DNA from: Somniosus microcephalus
Lineage: Eukaryota
Assembly (NCBI GenBank): GCA_052327205.1
Contig: CM126209.1
Location: forward strand, 148,490,001-148,554,000
Direction: 5' to 3'
Length of the DNA: 64,000 nucleotides
This document shows, in pieces, positions 21,282-63,595 of the stretch. The number at the start of each line of letters is the position of its first letter. The first letter of the stretch is position 1. Under the pieces are notes generated by a model. It did no database searches. It was not told the origin of the DNA and worked only from the letters and a program-made list of their open reading frames with translations. Position numbers and translations under genes: made by a program.

Positions 21282-22945
21282 ACATAGGATTACAGAGGAT
21301 ATACGGCACAGAAACAGGCCATTCGGCCCAACCAGCCCATGCTGGCATTTATGCTCCACTCAAGCCTCCTCCCGTCTTTCCTCATCTAAATCTATCAGCA
21401 TAACCCTCTATTCCCTTCTCCCTCATATGCTTGTCTAGCCTCCCCTTAAATGCATCTATACTATTTGCTTCAACACTCCCTGTGGTAGTGAGTTCCACAT
21501 TCTCACCACTCTTTGGGTAAAGAAGTTTCTCCTGAATTCCCTATTGGATTTCTTGGTGACTATCTTATATTGATGGCCTCTATTATGCTCTTCCCCACAA
21601 GTGGAAACATTCTCTCTGTATCCACTCTATCAAAACCCTTCATAATTTTAAACTCTATTAGGTCACCCCTCAGCCTTTTTTCAAGAGAAAAGAGACCCAG
21701 CCTGTTCATCCTTTCCTGATATGTAGACCCTCGCATTTCTGGTATCATCCTTGTAAATCTTCTCTGCACCCTCTCCAGTGCCTCTAAATCCTTTTTATAA
21801 TATGGCGACTAGAACTGTACGCAGTACTCTTAAGTGTGGTCTAACCAAGGTTCAATACATAACTTCCCTACTTTTCAATTCTATCCCTCTAGAAATAAAC
21901 CTTAGTGCTTGGTTTGCTTTTTTTATGGCCTTGCTAACCTGTGTCGCAACTTTTGGTGATTTGTGTATTTGTACTCCGAGATCCCTTTGTTCCTCTACCC
22001 CACCTAGACTCACACCCTCCAAGTGATAAGTGACCTCCCTATTCTTCCTACCAAAATGTAATACCTCACATTTATCTGTGTTGAACTTCATTTGCCAATT
22101 ATATGCCCATCCTGCAAGTTTATTAATGTCCTCCTGTAACCTGTTACAGTCCTCCTCAGTATTGACTATCCCCTCCAATTTGGTGTCATCCGCAAATTTA
22201 GAAATTTTGTTTTTGATTCCAAAGTCTAAATCATTAATATAAATTGTGAACAGTAGTGGTCCCAGCACTGATCCTTGTGGAACACTACTACCCATCTTCT
22301 GCCACTGTAAATAGCTACCTTTTACCCCTGCTCTCTGCTTTCTGTCTTGAAGCCAGCTAGCTATCCATTCTGCTACTTGTGCCCTGACTCTGCATTCTCT
22401 GACCATGTTCATCAGTCTATTATGGGGTACCTTATTGAAGGCCTTTTGAAAATCTAGATAAATTGCATCTACTGCATTACCATTGTCTACTCTCTCTGTT
22501 ACCTCTTCAAAAAATTCAATCAGGTTGGTCAAGCAAGACTTTCCATTTTGAAATCCATGCTGACTATTCCTTGTTATATTTTTGGTTTCTAGATGTTCTT
22601 CTATTTTCTCCTTTAGTAGGGATTCCATTACTTTTCCTCCCACCGATGTTAAGCTGACTGGTCTATAATTCCCTGGACATGTTCTATCCCCCTTCTTGAA
22701 TATAGGTATTACGTTAGCTCTCCACCAGTCTTCTGGCACTACACCTTTTCTCTAAAGAATTATTAAATATGTTTATCCCTTCCTTATATTCTTCCCTATA
22801 TTCTGTTAAAATGTGTGGATGCAATCCATCCGGACCAGACGTTTTATCCTCTTTGAGTTTGATTAGTTTATTTAATATATCCCCTCTTTTTATTTTAAAT
22901 GCACTTATCTTATTACTCATATCATCATCCAATGTCATGTCCACC
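21282..22945 (-). mobile_element. CR1 LINE ORF2 (RT) plus 3' end
   Basis: 295-aa ORF NYRPVSLTS...QHGF...LDFQKAF...PQGSVLGPLLF...FADDTK, and an upstream KTSGPDGLHP. Confidence 0.92.
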
Positions 22946-27788: not shown

Positions 27789-29599
27789 ATGCAGAACTGG
27801 ACAAAGAGCAGGCTCCAAGATTCTCTGACTCAGTACTGGAGGCCTTGGTGCAGGAGGTGGACAGGAGGAGAGAGGTCCTGCATCCACAGGAGGCCCTCCA
27901 GGTGAACTCTGAGAAGGCAATGGGTGCAGATAGCCATCACCGTCAATGCCAGCAGTGTAGCCTTGAGGACCTAGATGCAGTGCCGCAAGAAGTTTAATTA
28001 CCTCACACGAGTGGCCACGGTGAGTAAATTCATCCTCAAATGCCATATCCTTATAACTGAACCACTAGGCTCATACACTGCTCAATTCACCACCCTCTTC
28101 ACTCACCTACCAACAATCTCTATCAATCATGACTCATACCTCACATAGCTTCACCTCACCCTCACACACTTAGCACTGCTGCAAGCCTCACACCCACATT
28201 TCACAGCTTGTACACACTGCCAGCTGTTCAACCATGAGAGGCACATCACTCAAACACTACATCACACCCACTGACACACTTCCCTCTCTCTTGCAGCATA
28301 AGGTGGCTCATAACAGGAGGCAGCAGGAGGTACCCGCAGGGAGACAGGCACACCTGCATGACCTAACCACTATGGAGGAGACGGTGCTGGAGATCATTGG
28401 AGTGACCATCACTGAGCCCATGGCCAGCGGCGGGTCTGAAACAATCCAAGGTGACTGTATCTTCATACCTAATCCTCCTTCTCACATTCCATTTCCTCCT
28501 CATCCCACAATCTCTTCTGATTTGCAAGCTGCAGATGTTTTAAGCATGCACCTCTTGCTTCCTGCCCCCCCTCACCGCAACCCTACCCTTATGCCTTTCT
28601 CCTTTCAAATAGCCAAGAACTGCCACCTGGCCAAGCAGTGGTGGAGAAGTAAGTAATGCAAGAGGAAGAAGGCAGTGAGGCTGAAGACGCAACGTCACTC
28701 GATTTCACACTTGGAGCCACCAGCTTGGATACTGACACTCCGCATAATAGAGCATAGGTTAGACACGGGATATGCACATGGTGAGACACCAGGCATGAGG
28801 GCCTGTAACCTGGGTAGAGTGAAAGGGTAACGCTCCCCGGAGGGCGAGATCGCACATGAGTTTTGCTGCACAGGACTCAGATGAGGACTTCAATGGGACA
28901 GCCTACAAAAGAAGGCTGATGGGTATGTTCAAAGAAATGCTTGGTACATTGACAGCTCTGCCAGAAAGCCTGAGTGCAGTGTTAAGGAGCATGGAGGAGT
29001 CTGGCACCAACCTTGCACAAGGCTTTGCACAGAGCTTGGAGCCCATCCTTTTCAGCATGGAAGTGATTGGCAACTCCATTAACGCACTTGTTGACTCAAC
29101 CATGATGCAGTGTCTGATGGCTGAAGTCTCAGCTTCCATTGCAGCACAAGCAGAAGCCACCCAACGTCTGGGTGCTGCAGTGGAAGCACAGATTTCTGTC
29201 ATGCAAGCTTAGCTTGCTGCCACACAAGCTCAGACTGCTGCCATCATGGCTGCAGTTACCAGTGTTGAAAGGTACTTGCAGGGTGTCACAGTAGTGCAGC
29301 AATCTGTCCTCCAACAGATTGCTAGGATTGCTGAGGCACCGCCCTAGGAGATTGGCAGTGGCTCCGTGGAGCATGCACCTGTTGTCCTCTCTCAGGATGA
29401 CAGCATTCGTGCTCCCACCACTGCCTCTTCGCCAGTGCTCTTGCTTTTGCCTGTCAGCCAGCCAGCCCAGACTGCTGCCGCCTATGCCGATCTGGTGCAG
29501 TCCGAAGCCGGGCCTGCTGTGGTAGCACTGCGTAGGAGCACTAGAACAGGCAAAGACACAAGGAAGACAGGCACTAAGGGAAAGCACAAGGGTAATTAG
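27789..29599 (+). pseudogene. Harbinger Myb/SANT partner gene relic (3 exons)
   Basis: APRFSDSVLEALVQEV...QCRKKFNYLTRVAT|GTGAGT, then ttgcag|HKVAHNRR..., and a C-terminal LRRSTR...KHK. Intron layout matches the intact copy. Frameshifted. Confidence 0.8.
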
Positions 29600-29751
29600 T
29601 TGACTTTGAAATGTAACATTGGATGGTCTGATTTATAAAGTTGGTCTGGAATGTTTGTTTTGTGGTGGTATTTATTGTAGCATTGTGACCAAGAGGACGA
29701 TAACAGAGGGAAGGGAAGGTGTGGGACTGTTGCTGAATGGGGAATTGGGTT

Positions 29752-30830
29752 TACATTCACTGGTACCGCAGTCAGATGAGGCGATCACGGACAGCTCGGC
29801 CAGAAAGGGGCTCCTCCCTTCGTCATCCTCCTCCTCCTCCTCTTCCTTCTCCTTCTCTTCTTCCTCCTCCTCCTCAGCTCTTCAGCATATATGTGCTGGT
29901 AAGGGCTGTGCCCTCATGACGACGAGGTTGTGCAGCATGCAGCACACAACAACAAATCTTGAGACACACTCTGATGAGTACTGCAGGACTCCTCCAGAGT
30001 GGCCCAGGCAGCAGAATAGTCTGCTCAATCACATTCAGTGTGGCAGCATGGCTTTCGTTTTATGCATGCTGCCCACGTGTGCTTGGGTTGTGCACCGGAG
30101 TCATGAGCCAGCAAGTCAGCAGATAGCCCTTGTTGCCCTGCAGCCACTCTCTGGTTTGTCGTGGTGGCTCAAATGCAGATGTGACAGCAGACTGCCGCAG
30201 AATGAAGGCATCATGGATGCTGCCAGGATACTGAGCAATCACCTGTATGAAGCACTGAGTATGGTCGCACACTAGCTGGACATTGAGGGAGTGGAATCCC
30301 TTCTGGTTGTGGTCCAATTTAAATTCACATGTGGCACCCACAAAACAACGTGTGCACAGTAAATGGCACCCTGCATCTTGGGGAAGCCTATTATCCTGGT
30401 GAAGCCGCGTGCTCACTCCACTTGCTTCTCTCTGGCAAGAGAGCATGAAATGCATTCACCTCTCTTTGTATACAGAGCCTCAGTGACCTCCCTTGTGCAA
30501 CAGTGCACGGCAAACTGGGTGATGTAACCTGGGCAGAGTGAAAGGGTAACGCTCCCCGGAGGGCGAGGCCGCACATGAGTTTTGCTGCACAGGACTCAGA
30601 TGAGGACTTCAGTGGGACATATTGCCTGCTCCAGCCTGGAAGGAGCCCGACGCATAAAGATTCATGGCCACGCTCGCCTTCACAGCCACTGGCAAAGCCT
30701 TCCTTAGTCTGCTCTGAGCCTGCAATTCTGCCTGCAGCAGGTGGAAGATTTCAGTGAGCACCTACTCAGTGAAGCGGAGATGTTACATACTGTTCTTCAC
30801 TGAGGGTGAGGTCCGCACCAGAAGCATTCA
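29752..30830 (-). pseudogene. Harbinger transposase relic
   Basis: KGFHSLNVQLVCDH...YPGSIHDAFILRQS...WLQGNKGY...WLMTP, VVCCMLHNL and an acidic tail. Confidence 0.85.
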
Positions 30831-31754
30831 CGCGGATGCCATTTTGGATCCGAATTGGCATTATAGCGCCGAAAAAACAGACGTTACGGAGCCGAATTTA
30901 GTGGCCTACGTGTCTCAGTGAGGAGTCTTCAGTCTGATTGGTTGAAGAGACATGCTGTTGTTTGCCCTGCTCTCACACGCCATAGATCCTCTGTAGAGGG
31001 CACCATGCTGAAAAGCATCACTAAATACCATAAGTTGCCACTCAGAAACTCACAAAAAGCTGTGGGCAGCTGTAAGTGTAATGAACGACGAGCACCGTTC
31101 CTTCGCCGCTGACCGCAAAATATGGACCATTATCTTTAACAAAGCCCATTATAACTAATCACCCATAGATGCCCTTCAACTCCCTGCCAGATCTTCTTCC
31201 AGACCTCCTCCCAGATCTCCAAGTGATGAACCCTGAGTTGACCTGGCTGGAAACATGCCATATTCCTCGACTCTGAACCTCTTCCCAAACTCTATTAATC
31301 AGGACATTAATCTCCATGTTTGTGAAATAGGCTTTCTGAATTTTTGTTTTCTTTTTACAAAGCTTTGTATGCTTTGCAGCTGAATGCACTCAATTCTCAT
31401 CATTTATATTGGCCAATTTTGATGCTTGCAAAGTGTGAAAGTAGCATTGTTACATGTGCATCAAGATTGGCTAGTTTTCTTTTATTCCCATTATTGAAAT
31501 TGAATTACATGGATATCGGAATTCAGATTGAATGCTCAAGAATAAAACAGCATGTACCAAAGCCATCTTGATTTGAGTTCTTTATTTTTTATAAAGTAAG
31601 GCCATTTAACTCTTTATTTGAAAAAGAGCAAAAACATAGCTCCAATATGATCATTTTGCAAAAGTCAAGGACCAGAATAAAAGGCTTAAACAGTAGCTGT
31701 TTCACTGAAGACTGATCTGTCAATCCTCATCTCCTCAGTACATTACAAGATATT

Positions 31755-32439
31755 GGGGGGAAAATTGGGTGAGTAGCGCCACCTGTTAGCGCCTAAAGAG
31801 GCAGTCAGTGGCTGTAGCGCCACTGGCTGCGCCTCCCGCGATATTCAGCAGGGGCGCTAATGGTGGCGTTAGCCATTTGCGCTGCACCGCCACTGATGAC
31901 GTCATTGGTGTGCGCAGTGCCCCATTCGCGCCCTGTTCGCGATATTTGGTAGCGAACGGCGCAGTTGCGCCGTTCGCTACCCGCGCCCGGTTCACGGGGC
32001 CTTGCTGTGCCAGCAGCAGCGCAAGTTAAGGTGGAGGTGCGGGGCGGCCGCCTGCCAGCACCTCCATCCCCGGCCTCCTGACCCCCTCCCTGCGGCATTG
32101 CCAGCTGTTTCCCGAGAGCCCGGCACTTCTCCTTGGTGCCGGGCTCGTTTGCTGGCACTCGCGAGCGGGGATTACGCTGTTGCAGGCCCCTCCCCTTTTA
32201 ACAATGGGAGGAAGGCCTGCAGTACTGCAGCGTGCCGTGCCGCAGCGCGGCACGTTGCGCTGCGATATTCAGTTTCAGCGCCCTAAGAGGGACGCGGAGC
32301 GCCTCGAGCATCGCCCCGTCTCCCTCTAGGGGCAATGAAACTGAATATCTGACGATCGCTAAAGCCTTGAACGCTGCGCTAAATCCTGCGCTCAGGTGAC
32401 TTTGGCGCCACTTTGGCACCCCAACCCAATTTCTAGGGC
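31755..32439. mobile_element. CpG-rich Harbinger MITE, ATT TSD
   Basis: AAGAT-ATT[GGGGGGAAAATTGGGT...ACCCAATTTCTAGGGC]ATT-GTCTT, with many TAGCGCC/GGCGCTA motifs. Confidence 0.85.
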
Positions 32440-33580: not shown

Positions 33581-34211
33581 GGCCTAGAAATTTTACTTCA
33601 CAGCACCCATTTTCAAGTGAAGGACGGGCGCTGAAGGACCCCAATATGGCATGCGGCATCTGCGCGTTCAGTCTCTGTTGGAAGGGCGCTTCATGCTATA
33701 TTGGTTAGGGCACCCTGCAGCCCACCTGAAACTGGAGCTGGGTGCATTGTTTATGCAAATCGGGGACCGTTTCTTTATAAAATTCATTTGCGACTGACTA
33801 CAGCATGTGCCATCCCTGCTGTGGTCAGTTTTCTGAGGTGCACAGGAACCACACTAGTGGACCTTAAAGGAATCGCTGGAGACTGCTAAACAAAAGGTAA
33901 GTTGAAAGTTTTTTTACTTACCCGAATATGGAGCCAGGAAGAGCAGGAGTGCCCCCCCCCACCCCCTTCAATCCTTGGATTCAGCTGAGGTTTTCGGCTG
34001 GTATCACAGCCAACCAAATTCACCCCCCCTGCCCACCACCACCGTGCAACTGGGAAGCTGGAGTTGCGACTGGTGCCCACAGCTCCCCGGTACTATCCAA
34101 TGAGGCTGGCCAACCAATTTGCCATGACACTGCTGCCAACCTCATTCGGCGCATTCAGCATCCACTGCACCGGAATCATGGCCCGATTCACGATGATCCA
34201 ATTTCTACACC
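33581..34211. mobile_element. Harbinger-type MITE
   Basis: ATT[GGCCTAGAAATT...AATTTCTACACC]ATC. The left 12 bp are identical to the TIR of the intact element. Confidence 0.75.
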
Positions 34212-34401: not shown

Positions 34402-35171
34402 GGCCCAGAAATTCGGGTCGGGGGCTTCCCGTGGGTGGAAGCCCCCGATCTGCACTTACCTTGCGCGCCGCCCGTTGAGCTGTGGGCTCCCATGGAATTC
34501 CGATCCGGGGCCTTGTCCAGCTGCCGGCGCGCAGTGCTTGCATATCCCAGGGGCGCAGTTAGTTCGATGTGTCCCCATGGATCACGTGAGCCATGGGCAG
34601 CCAATCAGAGCAGGGAATGCTCCATTCATAAGTCTGACAGGAAGTGCTGTCAAGACTTATAAATACTACGGCCCCAAAATAGCACTAAATCTTCAAATAA
34701 TTTTTTTTTTAAATCACATTTTTTAATAAACTATAAATTACATGAAATAACTATTTTAAACAATAATTTAAATTTTTGAAAAAAATAATTTTATTTTCTA
34801 ATGGGGCTAAAAATCAACTTACATTGCTTTAAAGTATTTAAAAATAATAAACCTGTGGAAAAATTGTTTTAATTTTAATTAATTCACCACTTACCTTGTA
34901 AAAAGCAGGCCTTACACCTGCTTTTTATATTTCTAAATTCTGCAGGCTTACCCTTCCGGGAAAACCTGTAAAAAAAAAAAAAAAAAAAAGTTCTATGTGC
35001 ACGCGCGGCCTCCCCAGCGCACGCGTTCGACCTCTGAACCTCTTTGTTCAGAGGAACGGAAGTGCTGGTTTCCCGCGCATGCGCAGTGCATGCAGGAAAT
35101 CGGCACTTCCATCGGGCCTACGGGTGAGTACCCCGTGCGTACTCACCCGTGGAGACCCGAATTTCTGGGCC
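34402..35171 (+). mobile_element. Young Harbinger MITE
   Basis: Perfect TIR GGCCCAGAAATTCGGGTC / GACCCGAATTTCTGGGCC. Inverted sister copy at 48655-49415. Confidence 0.9.
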
Positions 35172-40152: not shown

Positions 40153-41451
40153 CGCACAATGTTTGATGTGTGGTAGGGTTCCTAAGAATATAAAACAGCA
40201 AAGATGGCACCTATGTACTCTACAGACCATTCAGCCTAACCTCCACCTCTTCCCAGCCTAGTTGCATTGGTGTCCTCTGTGGAGGGTCCTCTGCAATGTC
40301 AAACATAGCTGCTCTCTTTAAATATGCGCTCTTAGTTGGACGTTGCACATCTCCCGTTAGGCTGTTAGTTGTGTTGAAAGCTTATGCTAATTATTCAAAT
40401 AAGATTTATGCACAGCCATCTCTATGCGCTGTGGACTAGCTTGGCACAGGCAGCTAGCTATTCCTGGCACTGATTTTACTGGAATCTCAAAATCAGGACC
40501 ATGAAATAACTAATATTCAGCACCAGTACAGTTCTGAAGCAATGAACACAGGTTATTTCATCACAACTATAAAAGGTTCTGTTTGTGAGATGTTGCAGAG
40601 GGATGCCAGGGTGATACTGTAGATGATCAGTCACTAATCTGCTGGTGGCAAGAAGCCACTGACCTCGCCATCTCTCATGACAAAAGCTGAGTGCATATCC
40701 ATGAGCTGCATGGCCTTGTCCTCAAAGGGAATGAGTGGTTTAAAGGTGGCAATGCTCTCTCAGATGGTCTACCTTTGGCAGGCATTGTGTGCCATTTTAT
40801 CCTGCAAGAAGATAGAGTAAATGAGGGTACGGCTAGCAGTTGAAGAATGTGTGCCAAATCCTATGGGAGAGTGGAATTACAGTTGTTATGAGGCTGTTAA
40901 AATAGATGAAGCGGTTTTAGGGTCGTGTGTTTCAATAATTGCTGTGGGAGGAGCTGGGTCGCCATTCTGCAAGATGCCGAGTTAGCTACGCCCTTAACCA
41001 GAGTGCATTGTGATGGGTGAGTTGTGCAAGTGTTGCTTTAAGAAGATGAAGAGTGTGAAATCTTGACTTTTTTCCCCCAGGTGGAATTTTTTGTTTTATA
41101 AGGGGGAATAGTGGTATAACTCATTTTGCGGAAATTCTAGGCCAGTGCCTGCACGTTGTATTTGATGCTCCATAAACGGCTGTACGCTTGCATTTATATT
41201 GTGCCAACTCTGGTATTATGACGGGAGCCAACAGAATGAATGATAAATCAAATCTAGTTGACCTAGTTATCAATCCAACTTTGAAGTAATCCCACCTCCA
41301 GGCTGGTAGCCTTGCACCAATTAAACTGAATGCATATGCAGCTGGATGAAGCAACTTGCACACGTTAAAACTCAGAATACCAGGCAAGTATAACATTGTT
41401 GGTAAAGAACGAAAGAACCTGAATTTATATAGCACCTTTCATGACTCAGGA

Positions 41452-43707
41452 CGTTCTGGAGGGGGAGGGTGAACAACCAGTTGTCGTGGTGCATATAGGT
41501 ACCAACGATATAGGTAAAAAACAGGATGAGGTCCTAAAAGCTGAATATAGGGAGTTAGGAGGTAAATTAAAAAATAGAACCTCAAAGGCAGTAATCTCAG
41601 GATTGCTACTAGTGCCAAGTGCTAGTCAGAGTAGAAATAGAAGAATATTTCAGATGAATACGTGGCTAGACGATTGGTGCAAGGGGGAGGGATTCAAATT
41701 CCTGGGACATTGGAACCAGTTCTGGGGGAGGTGGGACCAGTAAAAACTGGATGGTTTGCACCTGGGCAGGACCGGGACCGATGTCCTAGGGGGAGTGTTT
41801 GCTAGTGCTGTTGGGGAGGGTTTAAACTAAAATGACAGGGGGCTGGGAACCTGTGCAGGGAGACAGAGGAAAGAGAAGCAAGGATAGACCCAAAAGACAG
41901 GAAGGAGAAAAGCAAACGTGGAAGTCACAGAACTCAAGGGTGTAAATCAAACATGGCCGCAGTAAACAATAATTCGAAAAGGTCTAAGAGTGTTAAATAA
42001 ACAAGCCTGAAGGTTCTGTGTCTTAATGCAAGGAGCATTCTTAATAAGGTGGATGAATTAGCTGCGCAAATAGATGTAAATGGATATGATATAATTGGGA
42101 TTATGGAGACATGGCTCCAGGGTAACCAAGGCTGGGAATTCAACATCCAGGGGTATTCAATATGCAGGAAGGATAGGCAAAAGGGAAAAGGCGGTGGGGT
42201 AACATTGCTGGTTAAAGAGGAGATTAACACAATAGTAAGGAAGGATATTAGCTCTGATGATGTGGAATCTGTATGGGTAGAGCTGAGAAATACCATGGGG
42301 CAGAAAACGTTAGTGGGAGTTGTATACAGACCCCCAAACAGTAATGCTGAGGTTGGGGATGGCATTAAAAGGGAAATTAGAGATGCGTGCAATAAGGGCA
42401 CAGCAGTTATCATGGGTGACTTTAATCTACATATAGATTGGCCTAACCAAGTTAGTAATAATACTGTGGAAGAGGAATTCCTAGAGTGTATACGGGATGG
42501 TTTCCTGGACCAATATGTCGAGGGGATCTCATTGAAACTTATAAAATTCTGACAGGACTGGACAGACTAGATGCAGGAAGGATGTTCCCGATGGTCGGGG
42601 AGTCCAGAACCAGGGGTCACCATCTAAGGATAAGGGGTAAGCCATTTAGGACAGAAATGAGGAGGAATTTCTTCACCCAGAGAGTGAAGAACCTGTGGAA
42701 TTCTCTACCACAGAAGGCAGTAGAGGCCTCTACCACAGAAGGCAGTAGAGGCCAATTCATTAAATATATTCAAGAAGGAGTTGGATATATTTCTTAAGGC
42801 TAAAGGGATCAAGGGGTATGGGGAGAAAGCAGGGACAGGGTACTGAATTCGGATGATCAGCCATGATCGCATTGAATGGCGGAGCAGGCTCAAGGGGCCA
42901 AATGGCCTACTCCTGCTCCTATCTTCTATGTTTCTATGAACCAACTAGAAATCAGGCCATCTTAGAATGGGTATTATGTAATGAGAAAGGATTAATTAGC
43001 AATCTTGTTGTGCGAGGCCCCTTGGGGAGGAGCGATCATAATATGATAGAATTCTTCATTAAGATGGAGGGTGAAGTAGTTGATTCAGAGACTTAGGTAC
43101 TGAATTTAAATAAAGGAAAGTACGATGGTATGAGGCGCAAGTTGGCTAGGATGGATTGGGGAATGTTACTTAAAGGGTTGATGGTGAATAGGCAATGGCA
43201 AACATTTAAAGATCACATGGATAAACTACAGAATTTGTTCATCCCTGTTTGGCATAAAAATAAAACAAAAAAGGCGACTCAACATTGGCTAACAAGGGAA
43301 ATTAGGGATAGCATAAGATCCAAGGAGAGGACATATAAATTGGCCAGAAAAAGCGCAAACCTGAGGATCGGGAGCAGTTTAGGATTCAGCAAAGGAGGAC
43401 AAAGGGATTAATTAAGAGGGGGGAAATAGAGTATGAGAGTAAGCTTGCAGGGAACATAAAAACTGACTGTAAAAGCTTCTATAGATATGTCAAGAGAAAA
43501 AGATTGGTAAAGTCAAGCGTAGGTGCCTTGCAGTCAGAATCAGGGGAACTTATAATGGGGAACAAAGACATGGCAGACCAATTAAACACATACTTTGGTT
43601 CTGTCTTCACAAAGGAGGACACAAATAAACTCCCAGAGATGTCGGGGAACATAGGGTCTAATGAGAGGGAGGAACTGAATGAAATCAGTATTTGTAGGGA
43701 AATGGTG
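41452..43707 (+). mobile_element. CR1 LINE 5' part: ORF1 SGNH-esterase and ORF2 AP-endonuclease
   Basis: VVVVHIGTNDIG...DGLHL in ORF1; IGIMETWL, RKDR..KGGGV, GVVYRPP, MGDFN and SDHN in ORF2. Confidence 0.9.
42521..42937 (+). mobile_element. Nested young CR1 3' end
   Basis: Interrupts the host at QYVE|EPTR. GDLIETYKILTGLDRL motif and an internal 25-bp tandem duplication at 42704-42752. Confidence 0.9.
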
Positions 43708-48654: not shown

Positions 48655-49415
48655 GGCCCAGATATTCGGGTCTCCACGGGTGAGTACGCACGGGATACTC
48701 ACCCGTAAGCCCAATGGAAGTGCCGGTTTCGTGCATGCACTGTGCATGCACGGGAAACCAGCACTTCCGTTCCCCTGAAAGAAGGGGTTCAGAAGTCGAA
48801 CGTGAGCGCGGGAGAGGCAGCGCGTGCGCATCAAATTTACGTTTTTTTTGCCGGTTTTCCCGGGAAGGTAAGTCTCCAGAAGTTAGACATGTAAAAAGCA
48901 GTCGCAAGGCCTGCTTTTTACAAGGTAAGTGGTGAATTAATTAAAATTAAAACATTTTTTCCACAGGTTTATTATTTTTAAATACTTTAAAGAACGGTAA
49001 GTTTATTTTTAAGCCCGTTAGAAAATGTAATTAATTTTTTCAAAAATTTAAATTATTGTTTAAAATAGTTATTTCATGTAATTTATAGTTTATTTTAAAA
49101 ATGTGATTTTTTTTATTTATTTGAAGATTTAGTGATGTTTTGGGGTTTATAGTATTTATAGGTTTGACAGTTCTTCCTGTCAAACTTATGAATGAAGCAT
49201 TCCCTGCTACCATTGCCTCTCCATGGCCAACATGATCCCAGGGGACGCTTCGAACTAACTGCGCCCCTGGGATACGCAAGCACTGCGCGCCGGCAGTTGG
49301 AGGAGGCCCAGGATCGCAATTTCACGGGGGCTCAGAGCACAACGGCCGGCGCACTAGCTAAGTGCAGGTCGGGGGCTTACACCCGCGGGAAGCCCCCGAC
49401 CCGAATTTCTGGGCC
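48655..49415 (-). mobile_element. Young Harbinger MITE (inverted sister of 34402-35171)
   Basis: ACT[GGCCCAGATATTCGGGTC...GACCCGAATTTCTGGGCC]ATT. Confidence 0.9.
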
Positions 49416-49575: not shown

Positions 49576-50742
49576 CATAGAAAACATAGAAAACATAGAA
49601 GATAGGAGCAGGAGTAGGCCATTCGGCCCCTCGAGCCTGCTCCGCCATTCAATAAGATCAGGGCTGATCATCCAAATTCAGTACCCTGTTCCTGCCTTCT
49701 CTCCATATCCCTTGATCCCTTTAGCCTTAAGAAATATATCCAACTCCTTCTTGAATATATTTAATGAATTGGCCTCTACTGCCTTCTTTGGCAGAGAATT
49801 CCACAGGTTCACCACTCTCTGGGTGAAGAAATTCCTCCTCATCTCTGTCCTAAATGGCTTACCCCTTATCCTTAGACTGTGACCCCTGGTTCTGGACTCC
49901 CTGACCATCGGGAACATCCTTTCAGCATTTAGTCTGTCTAGTCCTGTTAGAATTTTATAAGTTTCGATGAGATCCCCTCTCATTCTTCTAAACTCCAGCG
50001 AGTACAAGCCCAATCGACCCAATCTCTCCTCATACGTCATTCCTGCCATCCCAGGTATCAGCCTGGTGAATCTTCGCTGCACTCCTTCCATGGCAAGAAC
50101 ATCCTTTCTCAGATAAGGCAACCAAAACTGCACACAATACTCAAGATGTGGTCTCACCAAGGCCCTGTACAACTGCAGCAAGACATCCTTGTTCCTGTAC
50201 TCAAACCCTCTCGCTACGAAGGCCAACATACCATTTGCCTTCTTAACCGCCTGCTGCACCTGCATGCTTACTTTCAGCGACTGGTGCACAAGGATGCCCA
50301 GGTCTCGTTGCACTTCCCCTTCTCCCAATCTATTGCCATTCAGATAATAATCTGCCTTCCTGTTTTTGGCACCAAAGTGGATAACCTCGCATTTATCCAC
50401 GTTATATTGCATCTGCCATGCTTCCGCCCAATCACTCAACCTGTCCAAATCATACTGGAGTTTCTCGGCATCCTCCTCACAGCACACACGCCCACCCAGC
50501 TTTGTGTCGTCTGCAAACTTGGAGATTTTACATCTAGCTCCCTTGTCCAGATCATTAATATATGTTGTGAATAGCTGGGGTCCAAGGACCGATCCCTGCG
50601 GTACCCCACTAGTCACTGCCTGCCACTCGGAAAAGGAGCCATTTATTCCAACTCTTTGCTTTCTGTCTGCCAACCAGTTCTCTATCCAAGTCAATACCTT
50701 GCCCCCAGTCCCATGTGCCTTAATTTTACACGCTAATCTCTT
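49576..50742 (-). mobile_element. Young 5'-truncated CR1 LINE with an uninterrupted 338-aa RT C-terminus (49678-50694), nested in an older + strand CR1
   Basis: SGVPQGSVLGPQLF...KFADDTK...RNFFTQRVVNLWNSLP and a (TTTTCTATG)n tail. Confidence 0.93.
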
Positions 50743-51525
50743 GAAGGTGGCAAGACAAGTTGAGAAGGCTTTTAATAAAACATGGGATCCTTGGCTTTAT
50801 TAATAGAGGAATAGAGTACAAAAGCAATGGAGTTATGCAAAACCTTTACAAAACCCCGAATAGCCCTCAGCTGGATTATTGTGTTGAATTCTGGGCACCA
50901 CACTTTAGGAAGAATGTCAAGGCCTTGGAGAGGGTCTAGAAGAGATTTATTAGAATGGTACCAGGAATGAGGGACTTCAGTTAAGAGGAGATTTGATAGA
51001 GGTGTTCAAAATCATGAACGGTTTTACTCGAGTAAATAAGGAGAAACTGTTTCCAGTGGCAGAAGGGTCAGTAACCAGAGGACACAGATTTAAGGTGATT
51101 GGCAAAAAAACCAGAGGACATTTTGTTCTTCTGCATGCCCCTTCCAAAAGCCTTTCTGTATAATATACCTTCCCAGCTGAATGGACAAACTTGAAGTTTA
51201 TTTCTAGACCTCTGTCAATATTGTTGTGTCCAGGTTTGGCCGTTGGATTTCATTCCCTCCTTTTAATGAAGTATTTGGCTTGCCCAAGGAAAGATGCTTG
51301 AGAATAGAAAATCTGCATGTAAGGAATTACAGGGCAGTATACTAGACTTCTAACACGTTGCAGCAAAAGCTGCACTTCATCTACTCTGCCACTAAGTAAA
51401 CAGTAAATTCCAGTATAGCATTTTTTCAGTGGAACCAAGGTATTACGCATATACAAAAATGACAGAGGGACAAATTACTGCATACTTGACTGGAATAAAT
51501 AGAACTGGCAATAAACAGACTCATT

Positions 51526-52239
51526 GGCCCCGATATTTACCTGGGTGGGATTTCCAAATGGGGGGAGGAGTTCTGGTCCCCGAATGTGCATTTCTGTTTA
51601 ACAGGTTTCCCGCCCGGAAGCCAGCCTGATTGACAGGCTTGGCTCAATGTCAGGCAGGGAATGCTGCAGAAGAGGCTGCAACCCAGGAACAGGTAGGTTT
51701 CCTGCTACTCGGGAAGAGATTGAGAGATCACGGGGTGGGTACTGCGTGGTTTGGAGGGTCGGAGGGTGATTGCGGAGAGTCGGATAGAGATCGGGAGCAG
51801 AGATAGGGGTTCAAGGGCTGGCGATGGTGATCACGTGTGGGGCGTGGGGTCGGCGACCGTAGGGGGGGGGGGTCCAATCGGGGAAGCAGGTTAGCTCGGG
51901 GGGGCAGCACTCATGCTCCCTCTGGTTCACAAGCAGTACTGGTAAGCATTTACCTCTTCCACGCAGTTGTCCTCACCTCCCTTTAATCCTGGGTTTTCCG
52001 AGGCCTGGACAGCGTTAAAGCTGGAAGAGTGATAAAATATGAGGCACAAAGACTCATTAAAATATTTAAATGAGCGACCACCTCCTGTGAGCGGGTTGGT
52101 CGTCCGCTCTCTACCCCACCTCCGTTAAAACTGAAAGTGGATAGGTTCGAGGTGGGTTGGGTTCGGGTTTGAGATTTAAAAATGTTTTACATCCCACCTG
52201 ATCCAAACCCACCTGTTTCAGGGGGTTAAAATGACCCCC
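51526..52239. mobile_element. Harbinger-type MITE, ATT TSD
   Basis: AGACTC-ATT[GGCCCCGATATTTA...TTAAAATGACCCCC]ATT-ATATCT. Confidence 0.82.
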
Positions 52240-52267: not shown

Positions 52268-52397
52268 CCGACAAAAGGTCATTGACCTGAAACAATAACT
52301 GTTTCTCTCACCGCAGATGCTGTCTGACTTGCTGAGTATTTTCAGCATTTTCTGTTTTTATTTCAGATTTCCAGCATCTGCAGTATTTTGCTTTTGT
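52268..52397 (+). repeat. Solo Penelope terminal unit (decayed hammerhead plus GCAGATGCTG/CAGCATCTGC hairpin)
   Basis: CCGACAA-AAGGTC.ATT.GACCT-GAAAC. Homologous to 37783-37804 plus 38553-38640, and inverted at 57989-58070. Confidence 0.7.
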
Positions 52398-52653
52398 AAG
52401 AATATAATTCCTCTCATAAATACCTGATATCAAGTATTTAGAAATAATCATGATTTCAAAATATTGGACTAAGAACATATTGGCCTAGAAATTCAGTTGC
52501 GTTCGCCAGCCGTTAGCGCCATAAGAGGAGTAGATCTCGAGCGCTAGGCACTTAGTGGCCGGGTGCAGAACGATCTGCGCCTACGCCCAACTTCAGTAGA
52601 CATTTAGCGCCGGCGCAAAGTGTTTGCGCGCGCTCAGCTGCGCGCGCAACTTA

Positions 52654-52834
52654 TGACGTCATTTCGTCGTGCAACGCCGTTTGTGCGCCCCAAACCGGAA
52701 CTTCAGTGGCGCCCGCCCAATGTGGGCGTGGCGCTGTTAAGAACTGTGAAGTGGAACGCAGCAGAGGCCCTGCGGGCCTCGGGGTGCACTAATTAAAGGG
52801 CACTTAGACTGAACTATAAAGGGCAGCCATTTTG
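52654..52834 (+). promoter_or_regulatory. Putative transposase promoter
   Basis: CRE TGACGTCA at 52654-52661, ETS-like CCGGAA at ~52695, CCAAT at ~52717, TATAAA at 52815-52820 and YY1-like GCCATTTT at 52826-52833. Confidence 0.5.
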
Positions 52835-52981
52835 CTGCAATGACTTTAGTGCAACGGATTTCTGGACAGAGACCAAGGAAGAGACCTTACTGATTTGGGC
52901 CAACATAGGAGAGGTATTTTTGGCTTCTGGCCAGAGCTTGGAAATTTGACTCATTGTGATTTCACTGTTTGCAAGTATATT

Positions 52982-54124
52982 ATGGGGGCTGCATGGGGTT
53001 CCAACCCTCAGTTCCAGCATTATATGCGAAGGGCTCGCAGACGCTGTGTGAGAGGGGCAGCCATGCCTAGACGCAGAGGGGCCATCAGGCGTCGGCAACG
53101 TAGGCCTTACCCACTCAGGGTATACCGCCAGCAGGTGTCCTATCTCACCATGACTGCCGCGCAGTGTGTTAAGAGGCTGCGCTTCAGAAGGGAGGTGGTT
53201 GCAGAGATCTGCCAGCTGCTTCACAGAGATCTGCGTCCACAGCTGATGTGCAGGACGTCTCTGTCGGTGGAAGTGAAGGTCACGGTGGCTCTGAACTTTT
53301 ATGCAAGCGGCTCCTTCCAAGCCGCTGCTGGGGACATAGCTAACATCTCCCAGTTCGCCGTGCATCGCTGCATCCGGCAGGTCACCGATGCCCTTTTCAC
53401 AAGGAGACACCAATTCATCTCCTTCCCCATGACCCTAGAGAGGCAGGAGCAGCGTGCAGTCGGATTTGCAAGGATTGCCGACTTCCCCATGGTGCAGGGC
53501 GCCATTGACTGCACGCATGTGGCTTTGCGGGCACCTATCGACAATGCCGAGGATTACCGCAACCGGAAGGGCTACCATTCCCTCAATGTACAGCTGGTGT
53601 GTGACCACAGGCAGCGCATCCTAGCTGTCAATGCCCGCTTTCCAGGCAGCAGCCACGATGCATTTATCCTGCGCCAGACTACTGTGGCTGACATGTTCCA
53701 GGCACAGCCTCCCCCAAGAGGATGGCTTATCGGGGACAAAGGCTATCCTTTGTGTACATGGCTCATGACCCCGCTCCGCGCACCCAGGACCTCTGCTGAG
53801 GAGGCATACAACGAAAGCCATCAAGCCACAAGGAACATCATAGAGCAAACGATTGGCGTCCTCAAGCAACGGTTCCGCTGCCTGGATCGCTCCGGTGGAT
53901 CTCTGCAGTATTCGCCGGATAGAGTCTCCCAGTTCGTCGTCGTTTGCTGCATGCTGCACAACCTGGCTATCCGCAGGACTCAGGCACTGCTACCTCACGT
54001 TGGACCACCACCTCAGGAGGATGAGCAGGAGGACCATGAGGAGGAGGAGGAGGAGTACCAGCCCAGGAGGGAGCCACAAGGTCCAAGGGCCGTCCGTCGG
54101 CGGCTTATTGAACGACACTTCTAG
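52982..54124 (+). CDS. Harbinger DDE transposase (HARBI1-like), 380 aa
   Basis: GAIDCTH, NRKGYHSLNVQLVCD, PGSSHD, GDKGYP, YNESH..TRNIIEQTIGVLKQRF and CCMLHN. The ATG at 52982 is homologous to the ATG at 701 in the deleted copy. Confidence 0.95.
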   Translation: MGAAWGSNPQFQHYMRRARRRCVRGAAMPRRRGAIRRRQRRPYPLRVYRQQVSYLTMTAAQCVKRLRFRREVVAEICQLLHRDLRPQLMCRTSLSVEVKVTVALNFYASGSFQAAAGDIANISQFAVHRCIRQVTDALFTRRHQFISFPMTLERQEQRAVGFARIADFPMVQGAIDCTHVALRAPIDNAEDYRNRKGYHSLNVQLVCDHRQRILAVNARFPGSSHDAFILRQTTVADMFQAQPPPRGWLIGDKGYPLCTWLMTPLRAPRTSAEEAYNESHQATRNIIEQTIGVLKQRFRCLDRSGGSLQYSPDRVSQFVVVCCMLHNLAIRRTQALLPHVGPPPQEDEQEDHEEEEEEYQPRREPQGPRAVRRRLIERHF

Positions 54125-54237
54125 GCCACCTGTCAGGGAATGGCTCGTGGCAATGAAGGGACATGAATGCAGCCGCTCCGCAAGCCCTCAGCCGGTTAAC
54201 GCAACAACCACTTCAAACATCACACATGGACAAGCTG

Positions 54238-54257
54238 AATAAAGAAAAAGCTTTATT
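54238..54257. terminator. Paired poly(A) signals for the two convergent genes
   Basis: AATAAA on + at 54238-54243 and TTTATT (AATAAA on -) at 54252-54257. Confidence 0.65.
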
Positions 54258-54379
54258 GAACAAACTCAGGGCCCTTCCCACATGAAACCCAAAAACACAC
54301 AACACCCCCAAAAAACAGTCAAAAACATATCTCACTCCCACAACCTGGGGAGGAATAACAAAACTTGTCCATCCAAATG

Positions 54380-54599
54380 GCCTTCATCCTCGGCCTTACC
54401 AAAAGAACCCCCCCCATAGACAGCACAAGCACCCCCATATAAAAAACATTTGCCTTCATCCTCGGCCTTACCAAAAGAACCCCCCCCATAGACAGCACAA
54501 GCACCCCCATATAAAAAAACATTTGCCTTCATCCTCGGCCTTACCAAAAGAACCCCCCCATAGACAGCACAAGCACCCCCATATAAAAAAACATTTGCC
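54380..54599. repeat. ~72-bp tandem repeat x3 in the Myb-gene 3' UTR
   Basis: CCTTCATCCTCGGCCTTACC starts at 54381, 54453 and 54526. Confidence 0.92.
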
Positions 54600-54607
54600 A
54601 ACACACT

Positions 54608-56163
54608 CTACTTTGTGTGCCGAGAGGGCGAGTCCTTGTCCAGCCTTTTCCGGCCCCTGGCCGACCTGCTGCTCCGCCTCAACCTGGGCCCTGTGGGTGT
54701 TGCAAGGCTGGGGGAAGGCTCCTGAGGGGCACATTGCGTGACGGCAGATGCCCTTGGGGGTCGGCCTAGACGAGCTCTGGCCCTCGAGGGGCCGGCTGCT
54801 GACTGCTGCAGCTGTGGCTGGGCAGCATCAGTCTCTCCAGCAGCTCGTCGCAGCTTTGCTGGGGGAGTGGCAGTGGCGGCTGCAGCAATGGGGGCAAGCT
54901 GGCTGATGCCAGGCACTCGCTGGTCGCCAGAGACACTGGCACTCGGCCGGACTGGCACTGCAGCAAGCGCAGCAATCTGGTGAAGGCCAGACCGCTGTGC
55001 TGCAGCAGCGCGGCGGGTGCCCTGGCGATGCATGCGTGACACAGCGAGTGTGGCAGCAGTGAGTGCCCGTACTGCCCTGGTCTGTGCCCGCATCAGACCA
55101 GCCAGTGACTGCACGGCACCACTGATCAACTGTCCACTCGCTGCCTGTGCTGCCCTGAAGTCGTCCCGACTTGCGTCCTGTGCTGCCCTGAATTCGGCCC
55201 AACTCGCGTCCTGTGATGCCTCGAATTCGGCCCGACTCGCGTCCTGTGATGCCTCGAATTCGGCCCGACTCGCGTCCTGTGATGCCCCGAATTGTGCCCG
55301 ACTCGCGTCCTGTGATGCCCCGAATTGTTCGAGACCCCTGGCCTGTGCTGCCGCGAGTTGTTCAAAACCCCTGGCCTGTGAGGCCCCGAAATCGGACACA
55401 CTATGAGCCAGGGACTCAATGGCCTCAGGCAACCGTGCCACAACCACCATGAACTCGGTGTGCCGACGATCCGAGTCCGCGGACATTTGATCAAGGAGGC
55501 GCACCTCCTGGGCGACGACCGTCTCCGGACTGGAGGCCGGACTCTTCCTCTGGGGAGAAGGCCGCCGAGCTGCCCAACCCTTCCCGCGTGGCTGCATGCC
55601 ACTGGGCCCAGCAACTACACTCCCTTGCAACACTTCCCCCCTCTGGGGAGAAGGCCGCCGAGCTGCCCGACCCTTCCCGCGTGGCTGGACGCCACTGGGC
55701 ACAGGAGCTACACTCCCCTGCAACACTTCCCCCCTCTGGGGAGAAGGCAGCCAAGCTGCCCGACCCTTCCCGCGTGGCTGGACGCCACTGGGCACAGGAG
55801 CTACACTCCCCTGCAACACTTCCCCCCTCTGGGGAGAAGGCAGCCAAGCTGCCCGACCCTTCCCGCGTGGCTGGACGCCACTGGGCACAGGAGCTACGCT
55901 CCCCTGCAACACTTCCCCCCTCTGGGGAGAAGGCAGCCGAGCTGCCCGACCCTTCCCGCATGGCTGGACGCCACTGGGCACAGGGGCTACACCCCCCTGC
56001 AACACTTCCCCCTGCCTGTCCTCCAGGGAAGACGTGTCCCCTCCATTGCCATCCCCTGGCGCGGATGAGGGTTCCCCCGATGTGCCGCCTTCCTCTTGCT
56101 CCTCCTCGTCCTCCTCTTCCGAGGGACTGACACTCGCAGCTTCAGGGACCTCCTCCTCACCAG
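54608..56163 (-). CDS. Harbinger Myb/SANT-like partner protein, exon 3
   Basis: ttcctgctttcag acceptor, phase 1, in frame with the 465-aa ORF. Acidic tract, repeats and a basic C-terminus. Spliced CDS 237+163+1556 = 1956 nt (651 aa). Confidence 0.88.
55143..55390. repeat. 33-bp coding tandem repeat (~7 units, ASQDASRAEFE)
   Basis: CGACTCGCGTCCTGTGATGCC recurs every 33 bp. Confidence 0.9.
55547..56011. repeat. 93-bp coding tandem repeat x5 (31 aa)
   Basis: TGGGGAGAAG at 55551, 55644, 55737, 55830 and 55923. Confidence 0.95.
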
Positions 56164-56322
56164 CTGAAAGCAGGAAGGCACAAGAGTAGCTTTAGAGTGA
56201 GGACAGGGCGTCAGCGAGGGAGGCATGAGTGGTGGCATTCTGCGCATTGGTCGGACAGTGGCAAAGGATGTAGATCTGAAGCGCAAGGGGAACGAGAGAG
56301 GTCCAAACGGTCATGTCCTTAC

Positions 56323-56485
56323 CATTGGGGCCCAGCACAGGGTCGGCATCTCCAATTGCAACGGAGCCAATCACCCGGGCACCCATGACTCGACCCACGC
56401 GCTCCTCCAGGTCACTGAGCTGCTGGAACTGGGCACGGCCTCCCCCGGTGACAGTCCGGCTCTTCAGATTCTGGGCCAGCTTGGC
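56323..56485 (-). CDS. Harbinger Myb/SANT-like partner protein, exon 2
   Basis: tctttctcttgcag-type acceptor|AKLAQNLKSRTVTGGG...LSDLEERV...|GTAAGG. TGGG..L..EE is typical of these proteins. Confidence 0.88.
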
Positions 56486-56716
56486 CTGCAAGAGAAAGGA
56501 CGGCCTCTAAGTACAGTGTGGTGCCCTGTTGTTGTGTGCACTGCCTCCCATGGTCGAATAGCTTGGCCAGTGTGTAAAGTGCAGAAAGTGCAATTGATGT
56601 TCATGCCAGTGCCATAGCTGCTGGATGAAGGCTGGCCATTAGGCCTTTGAGGTCCCTTTGCCCATAATGTGAGGTGCACATGCAAGGATGAGGAGGACAC
56701 TGGAAAGGGTACTCAC

Positions 56717-56953
56717 CCTGACAATCCGAGTGAGGTCGTTAAACTTTTTCCGGCATTGGACACCAGTCCTGGGGACATCGCTGTTGGCTGTGACCCTCTG
56801 GGCGATTTCCCTCCAGGCTCTCCTGTACACCCTCTTGGGAGGCTTCTTGCCACTGTCCGGGAACAAGATATGGCTTCTCTTCTCCAAAGCCCTAACCAGC
56901 ACCTTTAAATCATGGGCAGAGAAGCGCTGCGCTCGCTCACGGGCCCTCTGCAT
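56717..56953 (-). CDS. Harbinger Myb/SANT-like (trihelix) partner protein, exon 1
   Basis: MQRARERAQRFSAHDLKVLV...LF...AWREIAQRV...RTGVQCRKKFNDL...|GTGAGT. Confidence 0.92.
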
Positions 56954-57360
56954 CCTTCCTGGCGCTATTTCTCTCCAGCAGCAGTGTTTAGGCCTAGCTG
57001 GAGGGCTGCAGTATCCAGGGCGTGGCAGCAGACCAAGTCGACCCTTCCCCCTTTAAGAGCTGGCCGGCACCAGGGTGTCTGCTGTCAATCAAAACATGAC
57101 CGCACCTGCGCTGCGCCCGGCCTCGGCGGTATCAGTCTGCACCGCCGGCTTAGCGCCTAAAGATAGCCGTGCAACGCCAGTTTTAGCGCTCGAGCAAACT
57201 CCTTGGCCAAAGCTACTGAATATCGGCGAAGTGGCCTCCACTTTCCGGCGGGCGCAAACATTAGCGGCCGCCCGACTTTACCGCCCCAAAAGTGGCTATA
57301 CTGAATTTCTAGGCCATTAGATATAATCCAGTAGCAATTAGAGGGTATTGCTGAAATACT

Positions 57361-58134
57361 GGGGTAGAAATTAATTTCTGCTGCTCAGCTGGTACGAACT
57401 GTTCCCTGCGCCGATCAGGTAGGCCTGAGGACTAATGGATATTGGGCCTCAGACCTCATTTTAATAAGTCTGGCAAGCTGCCAAAGCCTATCACTCATCC
57501 CCAGGCAGTTCACCGGTGGGGCGGAGGTCAATTTCGGGCCACTGCAACGCAAGCAGCGGCTCTCAGTTAAGTGCTGGGGGGGGAGGGGAAGAAGAGTAGG
57601 GGGCAATCACCAGACTCTTGCTTCTTCTGGCTCCACATGACCGTTTGGAAGAAAAAAAATGAAAAGCTTACCCTTTTAGTGGCAGCCGCTTTCTAAAACA
57701 CATCTACTCTTGGAAAAGCTGAGTGGCACACGATTGCGCCTGCTCCCCTCAGGGTAACCCAATTTCAGGAAAGGGGTCCTGATACAGGTGTTAGGTCCCT
57801 CATTAGCATATGCAAGTGGCCTAACGCCTGTTTGAGGCTGATACAGTCACGCCTCTGGAGTGCCCGAAGCAAAATGGCGGCAGACGTGTTTCTGGTGCTG
57901 TTCGAGCGCGGAAGGTTGTTCCCTTAATGTGGACCTCTGTGCCGCTGCTTTCCACCTGGAAAACGGGCCCAAGGTGATCCAATTTCTAAAAGAAAATACT
58001 GCAGATGCTGGAAATCTGAAATGAAAAACAGAAAATGCTGGAGAAACTCAGCAGGTCAGGCAGCATCTGTAACTTCTTCAAGGTGGGCATTCCTGGAAGA
58101 GAAGTGGCAATGATTTAAATCCAATTTCTACCCC
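57361..58134. mobile_element. Harbinger-type MITE
   Basis: Perfect TIR GGGGTAGAAATT / AATTTCTACCCC with flanks ACT / ATT. Confidence 0.82.
57989..58118 (-). mobile_element. 130-bp Penelope-terminus insertion with a 12-bp TSD
   Basis: ATCCAATTTCTA at 57977-57988 and 58119-58130. 57989-58070 is the reverse complement of ~52314-52395. Confidence 0.75.
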
Positions 58135-62525: not shown

Positions 62526-63595
62526 GGCCTGTAATTTGCGGCCTGTATGGGCGCATACATGTCCACAGTGGCCGCGCAAGTTCTGGGTTTTCGCGTGTGA
62601 AGCACATGCGTGAAAACCCAGAACTTGCGATCTGTCAAGAATCTTCTTGACAGATCCAATGCATCCCCATAAAAGAGCATCCACAGGCGGAGAATTGGGC
62701 TATTTGCCCAACTTCTGCCCAGCGAATGCCCATGAAATTCTTACGCCTGGCATAAGGCCTGCTTTTACCATCATAAGAGTTTTAAAAAAATGTAAAAATG
62801 TTTTTGAATCATTTAAACATTAAAAACCTGTGCAATAAGGTATGGCTACTTTAGCCCCTTTAAAACATTTAAATTTATTTTTCAAGAAATGAAAATTTTG
62901 TTTTAAATATTTAATTAAATGGCATTTTAATTAATTTTAAATATGTAATTTTTTAAAATTTGATGTGTACATGTATTTTTTGGAGTACAGGTAGACTACC
63001 CTTTATCCGAACTTCCGAAAACCGAAACCCTCTAAAAACCGAAGGTTTTTTCGTTCAGCGTAAGTCGTGCGCACGACCCCGACCCCCACCGCCGACCCCC
63101 CGCCGACCCCCCACCCTTTCGGATAAGGGATAGTGTATCCTTTATCCGCACTTCCGAAAACCGAAATCCTCTGAAAACCGAAAGGTTTTGTTCAGCGTAA
63201 GTCGTGCGCATGACCCCGACCGCCGACCCCCACCCCGACCCCCCGGCCAACCCCCGACCCCCTGCCGACCCCCAACCCCCACCCCCGACAAATTTCCCAG
63301 TCTTATAAAATACCTTCTGAAATCCGAAATTTTCCGAAAACCGAAACACGGCTGGTCCCGAGGTTTTCGGATAAAGGATAGTCTACCTGTATTGCCATTC
63401 ATGCTTATGGGGATTCCTTTCTGTCATTCGTTGGGCCGGCCCACGTGATCCCAGGGGTGCTTGGGACCCACGGGTACCTGGAGAGGCCTAAGATCGCGAA
63501 TCTCCGTACCTCCCAGACCACCAGGTACACGGGCATTTTATTTGTGGATCGGAGGCAATTTCCCGCGGGTAGCCTCCGACCACAATTTCAAGGCC
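62526..63595. mobile_element. Harbinger-type MITE inside CR1
   Basis: AAT[GGCCTGTAATTTGCGG...CCACAATTTCAAGGCC]ATT. Homologous to 37808. Confidence 0.82.
62988..63389. mobile_element. Tc1/mariner (Tigger/pogo-like) MITE, TA TSD
   Basis: TA[CAGGTAGACTACCCTTTATCCGAA...TTCGGATAAAGGATAGTCTACCTG]TA, with a 23/24 TIR match. Confidence 0.9.

Follow-up and report, generated by a model that had tools for sequence, protein, structure and literature searches.

A structurally complete, probably autonomous Harbinger transposon of a shark and ray lineage with an ANT target signature in Somniosus microcephalus

The stretch of the Somniosus microcephalus genome analyzed here (64,000 nucleotides of contig CM126209.1, positions 148,490,001 to 148,554,000 of the forward strand; hereafter the window) contains a 4,834-bp element that carries two open genes between perfect terminal inverted repeats (TIRs). 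The original prediction, made from the letters alone, had described it as a structurally complete and probably recently active two-component Harbinger transposon. All coordinates are positions in the window, and the searches for flanking sequences and for further DNA copies were limited to it. The structural part of that description was borne out, as the ends, the two open genes and the catalytic triad are all present, and the element is laid out as follows.

52479 to 52481, no strand: left target triplet ATT, putative target-site duplication (TSD)
52482 to 52497, + strand: left TIR, 16 bp, perfect
52498 to 52981, + strand: left subterminal region, CpG-rich, putative transposase promoter and 5' untranslated region (UTR), with a TATA-like box at 52815, three TAGCGS motifs and blocks conserved in a broken relative at 1-1211
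52982 to 54124, + strand: DDE transposase, 380 amino acids (aa) plus stop, with D176, D252 and E288 and an acidic C-terminal patch
54238 to 54257: opposed AATAAA poly(A)-like signals of presumed use, at 54238 on the + strand and at 54252-54257 on the - strand
54380 to 54599: tandem array in the 3' UTR of the Myb gene, three 72/73-bp units that are nearly identical and differ in homopolymer length only
54608 to 56163, - strand: predicted Myb exon 3, encoding an acidic patch, 31-aa repeats, helical 11-aa repeats, a basic tail and the stop
55136 to 55399, - strand: 33-bp (11-aa) in-frame tandem repeats, about 7-8 units
55547 to 56012, - strand: 93-bp (31-aa) in-frame tandem repeats, 5 units
56164 to 56322, - strand: predicted Myb intron 2, 159 nt, GT-AG, phase 1
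56323 to 56485, - strand: Myb exon 2, 163 nt
56486 to 56716, - strand: predicted Myb intron 1, 231 nt, GT-AG, phase 0, its junction backed by homology
56717 to 56953, - strand: Myb exon 1, with a Myb/SANT-like DNA-binding domain (PF13873)
56954 to 57299, - strand: right subterminal region, CpG-rich, putative Myb promoter, with four TAGCGS motifs
57300 to 57315, - strand: right TIR, 16 bp, perfect
57316 to 57318, no strand: right target triplet ATT, putative TSD

The TIRs are complementary at 16 of 16 positions, and an ATT triplet lies directly outside each of them, just as had been predicted. A perfect 16-bp inverted pair no more than 10 kb apart would be expected by chance about 0.28 times per window, and adding a matching triplet lowers this expectation to about 0.005 by simple arithmetic; because the pair has the matching triplet, encloses both genes and begins with 12 bases common to other termini in the window, we do not regard it as a chance occurrence. 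The two genes are oriented tail-to-tail. The observed/expected CpG ratio, 0.61 over the whole element, rises to 1.12 and 0.85 at the two ends, where the TAGCGS motif occurs seven times. A search of Rfam gave no match. The longest inverted repeat of the region (52314-52399 versus 57983-58069) does not represent the element ends; it is formed by two copies of a short dispersed repeat in inverted orientation, which are about 90% alike and flank the element by coincidence; a third copy lies near 38580.

The transposase frame is open over all 380 aa (chance about 1e-5) and matches the Pfam family DDE_Tnp_4 with an expectation value (E) of 2.5e-39. The catalytic residues originally noted in GAIDCTH, GDKGY and NIIEQ correspond to a complete D-D-E triad, which just 55 of the 120 listed homologues retain. 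These homologues are the best 120 of 356 above the cutoff, from 8,000 candidates scored; 111 of them are named from sharks or rays, and the best of the matches listed reach 64% identity across 93% of the protein and 68% across 78%. When aligned with the 120 homologues, the transposase deviates at two of 91 well-conserved columns and keeps the other 89, compared with a median deviation of 12% for the homologues themselves. In-frame ATG codons are found at 52982, 53024 and 53063, the first and third of which are retained in the broken relative at 1-1211. In a tree of 37 proteins, consisting of the window transposase and 36 matches picked for length and species spread, with no Pangu, Nuwa or Harbinger3 reference protein, it is placed among elasmobranch sequences, beside Pristiophorus proteins. 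These comparisons suggest that the transposase belongs to a long-resident elasmobranch-type Harbinger lineage. A recent horizontal transfer from bony fish was also considered and is unsupported, as the best bony-fish proteins among the matches reach only 46-51% identity.

An AlphaFold model built on a 51-sequence alignment has a predicted local distance difference test score (pLDDT) of 85.9, and its top structural matches are DDE transposases (Z 8.4-9.5), including piggyBac (Z 9.5, root-mean-square deviation (rmsd) 5.4, 230 aligned residues) and Tn5 (Z 8.8, rmsd 5.9, 245 aligned residues). The model shows an RNase H-like DDE fold. A fold predicted from the single sequence was uninformative (pLDDT 39), a PDB sequence search with the transposase returned nothing significant, a Foldseek search returned nothing at E 0.001 or better, and no Harbinger structure surfaced in the PDB searches.

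For the partner gene, joining the three exons across the two GT-AG introns gave exactly 651 aa, reproducing, as predicted splicing, the product proposed originally. Exon 1 matches Pfam Myb_DNA-bind_5 (E 9e-15), and its Myb domain is 53% identical to conserved shark and ray Myb genes. The junction of exons 1 and 2 is covered by gap-free alignment to shark proteins, one of them a gene model that fuses a Myb gene to a transposase, and the second junction and exon 3 are weakly supported by the similarity of the C-terminal part to a conserved shark Myb protein (pairwise E about 1e-6). The open frame of exon 3 spans 517 codons (chance 5e-4), and the other five frames carry 4-10 stops. Its two repeat arrays have periods divisible by three (93 and 33 bp), unlike the 3' UTR array with its period of 72/73; the internal tandem units are 92-100% identical. 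Taken together, the three-exon Myb gene is likely as a predicted model. The 11-aa and 31-aa expansions approximately double the Myb partner relative to the sizes listed for vertebrate families, and the 11-residue repeat may form a coiled coil. TAGCGS, a motif picked by eye, is a candidate site for the Myb protein.

To define the target of the family, termini were collected by an unbiased scan that used the first 12 TIR bases with at most two mismatches, ignored the flank and excluded the element itself; a position weight matrix scan was set aside in its favor because the seeds had been partly chosen by their flanks. The unbiased scan gave 22 matches outside the element, compared with means of 7.4, and 0.7 with ANT, in shuffled sequence. 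ANT adjoins 13 of the 22 termini (background 7.6%, P 8e-10). Neither TWA, the target of PIF/Harbinger in the narrow sense, nor TNA, which NuwaII targets between C and G, adjoins any of the 22, and CWG, the NuwaI target, adjoins one, a weak match. Of the 13 ANT termini, 12 have A at position -7 and 11 have a pyrimidine at position -4. The target consensus reported for Harbinger3_DR of zebrafish is AAACACCWGGTCTTT (PMC3016246), and the six bases beyond the triplet agree with the half-site of Harbinger3_DR at 3.6 of 6 positions, against a background of 1.86 over all ANT sites of the window, the level of 3.6 being reached in 0 of 200,000 resamples; two termini match perfectly. The target of the family appears to be an A-N-T core within Harbinger3-like arms. 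The target-selective part of the earlier suggestion of an integration tool gains support from the ANT termini and their arms.

Three Harbinger relatives in the window are broken. The one at 1-1211 (- strand) shares 73% DNA identity with the 4,834-bp element (Kimura two-parameter (K2P) distance 0.28, or 27.9%), is internally deleted and runs off the window start; in it, the left end and a broken 5' transposase directly abut the region of the Myb promoter. Promoter-like blocks are conserved between the two, and mismatches number 22, 37 and 40 at codon positions 1, 2 and 3, a pattern blurred by decay. A decayed two-gene Harbinger at 27466-30887 has the same tail-to-tail layout, with a decayed transposase at about 29830-30780 and an internal 97-bp duplication (28804-28900 versus 30523-30619, 96%), and a further, more decayed transposase remnant matching DDE_Tnp_4 lies at 15570-16350 (- strand). 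There are also at least seven elements of 630-1,070 bp that resemble MITEs (miniature inverted-repeat transposable elements) and have related TIRs, nearly all adjoining ANT (31755-32439, 33581-34211, 34402-35171, 48655-49415, 51526-52239, 57361-58134 and about 62526-63595), as well as single MITE-like ends at 41143 and 45617; two of the MITE-like elements flank the 4,834-bp element, at distances of less than 250 bp and 45 bp. Two copies of one MITE family differ by 13.9% K2P, no young MITE was found in the window, and none is a deletion derivative of the exact 4,834-bp element, so that the mobilization of related MITEs supposed in the original prediction found no support here. Of the 26 TAGCGS motifs in the window, 21 fall inside Harbinger-type elements. 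The non-autonomous relatives at 1-1211 and 31755-32439 have both the TIR start and the motif, three MITEs are without it, and cross-mobilization of the relatives that bear it is plausible.

The surroundings are rich in other transposable elements. Pfam searches of 138 flanking frames of at least 85 aa returned retroelement and transposase domains and two sub-cutoff matches, with no host gene family above the cutoff, a screen that short host exons would escape. Broken fragments of long interspersed nuclear elements (LINEs), which we take to be CR1-like, are abundant (for example 6365-7408, 21855-22751, 41423-42549 and 49681-50796) and include RVT_1, endonuclease and GDSL-lipase-like ORF1 pieces.

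In its DDE_Tnp_4 transposase with triad, Myb/SANT second gene and short TIRs, the element is a member of PIF/Harbinger in the broad sense, and its gene pair, DDE_Tnp_4 with Myb_DNA-bind_5, is that of NuwaI. The zebrafish element Harbinger3_DR, which belongs to the NuwaI group, likewise combines these two domains with a short TIR starting GG and a length of 4-5 kb (PMC4482050). The target arms AAA[C/G]AC are common to the shark element and Harbinger3_DR, but the core is CWG in the latter and ANT here, the TIR starts GGG there and GGC here, and the Myb partner, listed at 221 aa for Harbinger3_DR/NuwaI, is 651 aa here with two in-frame repeat arrays; in addition, the shark element is natively open, whereas Harbinger3_DR is a reconstruction. 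Pangu/Harbinger2 likewise has an ANT triplet and a GG start, and Pangu is the only group for which the 2015 survey lists an ANT TSD; however, no vertebrate is among the 34 Pangu families listed there, and their second open reading frames (ORFs) mostly lack a recognized domain, none being listed with Myb_DNA-bind_5 (PMC4482050). Pangu and Nuwa are described as separate transposase lineages (PMC12730594), and the proteins nearest to the shark transposase are vertebrate ones named 'putative nuclease HARBI1', which argues against the Pangu clade. The element thus appears to be a Harbinger3/NuwaI-like machine with an ANT core, judging by its domain type, its target arms and the names of its matches. 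No vertebrate Harbinger with an ANT or AWT target was found in the literature; Repbase and subscription papers were not covered, and an earlier description is possible.

Contrary to the rarity that the original prediction had implied, intact native vertebrate Harbingers have been published before. Two intact ORFs are reported for 11 NuwaI and 22 NuwaII families, several of them from fish and turtle (PMC4482050), and Harbinger-Snek of sea kraits is also a native vertebrate Harbinger whose two ORFs are intact; it has non-autonomous derivatives as well as solo-ORF ones, numbers 269 intact copies in Laticauda colubrina and is possibly still transposing (PMC8437027). Harbinger-Snek was acquired horizontally and spread in a high-copy burst (PMC8437027), whereas the relatives of the shark element are shark and ray proteins. 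For cartilaginous fish, Harbingers were reported as undetected in elephant shark, with a need to test other species (PMC9179366), and a RepeatMasker-level report ranks Tourist/Harbinger first in abundance among the DNA transposons of a reef shark (PMC12498223). HARBI1, NAIF1, MSANTD and the shark-specific domesticated relatives comprise the same two protein families, but they are separate host genes, while the shark element has a linked pair inside TIRs and an intact triad; the word 'shark' does not occur in the main text of the MSANTD paper (PMC9392472). The apparently domesticated Harbinger transposases of sharks and rays form short-branched, cross-genus clades that have lost the catalytic E or the triad, and an apparently domesticated Myb gene is nearly identical across shark and ray genera.

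To gauge the age of the element, neutral decay was simulated forward in three settings of 400 runs each, with assumed CpG and indel rates, and a run counted as surviving if the TIRs, the triplet, the splice sites, the catalytic triad and the two genes all stayed intact. At 0.5% divergence 15-48% of the runs survived, at 1% divergence 2.5-24% and at 2% divergence 0-5%, and intactness would accordingly limit neutral decay to about 1-2%. At the mutation rate of the epaulette shark, 7e-10 per site per generation (PMC10587355), this divergence equals 14-29 million generations, and with so low a rate an intact element is still compatible with such an age. The CpG content, promoter motifs and poly(A) motifs listed in the original prediction are present, but the first two were rejected as evidence of age, since old broken relatives keep both; bins of 2 kb with old Harbinger-type relics reach an observed/expected CpG ratio of 0.64-0.83, so CpG retention says little about age. 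The element is younger than every decayed relative in the window, and "recent" applies to it only relative to these neighbors. The stronger claim of recent activity is not supported, given the millions of generations allowed and the lack of any near-identical copy.

We consider it probable that this is a full-length autonomous PIF/Harbinger cut-and-paste transposon from a long-resident shark and ray lineage that has not yet acquired a disabling mutation, and we are more confident still that it is an autonomous Harbinger rather than a host gene. It is an ordinary kind of element, and the ANT target signature is the new point. In the reconstructed Harbinger3_DR system, as for Ping, both proteins are required, as the original prediction had also stated, and the Myb protein binds the ends and the transposase and is needed for nuclear entry of the transposase; excision in the superfamily is usually precise (PMC2836001). 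By analogy, the two genes of the shark element would be transcribed toward each other from end-proximal promoters, the Myb protein would bind the ends, perhaps at TAGCGS, and carry the transposase into the nucleus and onto the TIRs, and the transposase would then excise the element and insert it with a 3-nt stagger into a palindromic site of about 15 bp with an ANT core, duplicating the triplet. Whether the proteins are competent as they stand is, on sequence grounds, evenly balanced, and it is doubtful that the element is still moving in its host today. A bolder version, which we hold only tentatively, is that of a natively competent shark Harbinger integrating into a palindrome of about 15 bp with Harbinger3-type arms and an ANT core; it would be similarly speculative to derive this core from an independent switch of the central triplet in a Nuwa-like lineage, perhaps along with an altered geometry of the cut and no true duplication.

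Several observations weigh against parts of this interpretation. No strongly supported clade of the 37-protein tree contains the window transposase. Residues 205-410 of exon 3 have no database homologue among 8,000 candidates scored, the openness of the exon is only moderately unlikely (0.008) once its repeats are collapsed, and changes among the 93-bp units are non-synonymous in 13 cases and synonymous in 3, with no sign of purifying selection. The window contains no second copy above 79% identity, the protein sets, including a whole-library search, contain no protein above 68% identity, although the host genome may be absent from them, and none of the three start variants of the transposase is present in the protein collection; there is thus no sign of a burst. 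The flanks of the decayed two-gene relative at 27466-30887 are TGC and TAC rather than ANT, the middle base of ANT differs between left and right in four of seven related pairs (34402-35171, 48655-49415, 57361-58134, and 62526 or 62728 to 63595), and the last base of the triplet differs in one further pair, 33581-34211.

These mismatches bear directly on whether the triplet is duplicated at all. Eight paired elements were examined, some with partners picked with the flank in view, and the triplets are identical in three of them (the 4,834-bp element, 31755-32439 and 51526-52239, the last with weak TIRs). An improbable alternative is that there is no 3-bp duplication, the TIR being 17 bp long and starting with T, the insertion being blunt and Spy-like between the two middle bases of ANNT, and the two ATT triplets being coincidental. 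Consistent with it, the base outside each TIR is complementary to the other; in the four non-focal pairs with both ends from the unbiased scan the middle base differs in three, while 15 of 16 outer bases are intact; and the middle bases, read facing inward, are A seven times, C four times and T and G once each, a skew where a duplication predicts symmetry. However, the arms are placed exactly as the Harbinger3 arms are around a 3-nt core, and three of the eight pairs match exactly. Furthermore, one of the mismatched pairs, the MITE at 48655-49415, lies within a LINE fragment of which about 170-180 bp are missing at the junction, and its outer A and T align with the LINE, with a left anchor of only 7 bp; this suggests that its unlike triplets reflect a deletion beside the element after an ordinary insertion, possibly made by the transposase. 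Paralogous empty sites were sought in the window for seven insertions, and none cleanly spans a junction. A true 3-bp duplication at ANT remains likely, favored by arms that are spaced as in Harbinger3. A 2-bp AT duplication, as in ISL2EU-like elements, was rejected, as the flanks do not fit and the second gene is Myb.

The remaining alternatives concern what the element is doing now. There is about an even chance that it is an intact fossil, silent or dead: a fixed insertion whose age runs to millions of generations, which belongs to an extinct family and has stayed pristine through slow shark mutation. At the epaulette shark rate a divergence of 1% takes 14 million generations (PMC10587355), the window relatives are all old (13.9% and 27.9% K2P), neither the window nor the protein sets yielded a near-identical copy, and broken relatives also retain CpG and promoter motifs; on the other hand, the element is clearly less decayed than each of these relatives, its internal tandem units are nearly uniform, and one 64-kb window cannot reveal copy number. 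This explanation is compatible with the identity proposed for the element and differs on present activity only. That the element is instead currently active, mobilizing itself together with related MITEs, seems unlikely to us: nothing disabling is visible, and the common TIR start and TAGCGS motifs of the relatives at 1-1211 and 31755-32439, like the concentration of the motif in Harbinger-type elements, would fit such activity, but the window holds neither a young MITE nor an identical copy. Very improbable is a domesticated gene pair of the HARBI1/NAIF1 kind kept open by selection. Sharks and rays do carry conserved Harbinger-derived transposase genes that have lost the catalytic E, and conserved Myb genes as well, yet the element retains TIRs, triplet and triad, its genes are orthologous to none of the conserved ones (transposase at most 68%, Myb domain 53%), and it lies among transposable elements with no host gene family above the cutoff in the flanking frames of at least 85 aa.

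Harbingers are among the most sequence-selective of cut-and-paste elements, and the one vertebrate system found assayed in the literature is a reconstruction (PMC2836001, PMC3016246). The intact natural pair described here, which has the arms in common with that system but another core, lends itself readily to comparisons of how the choice of target is encoded, and it bears on the stated gap concerning Harbingers in cartilaginous fish (PMC9179366). Without activity, the element is a well-preserved representative of a superfamily that is well known; if active, it is a candidate integration tool. Should it prove to be natively competent with an ANT core, pairing it with Harbinger3_DR would map the residues that read the core and those that read the arms, and it would provide a second sequence-selective vertebrate integration system.

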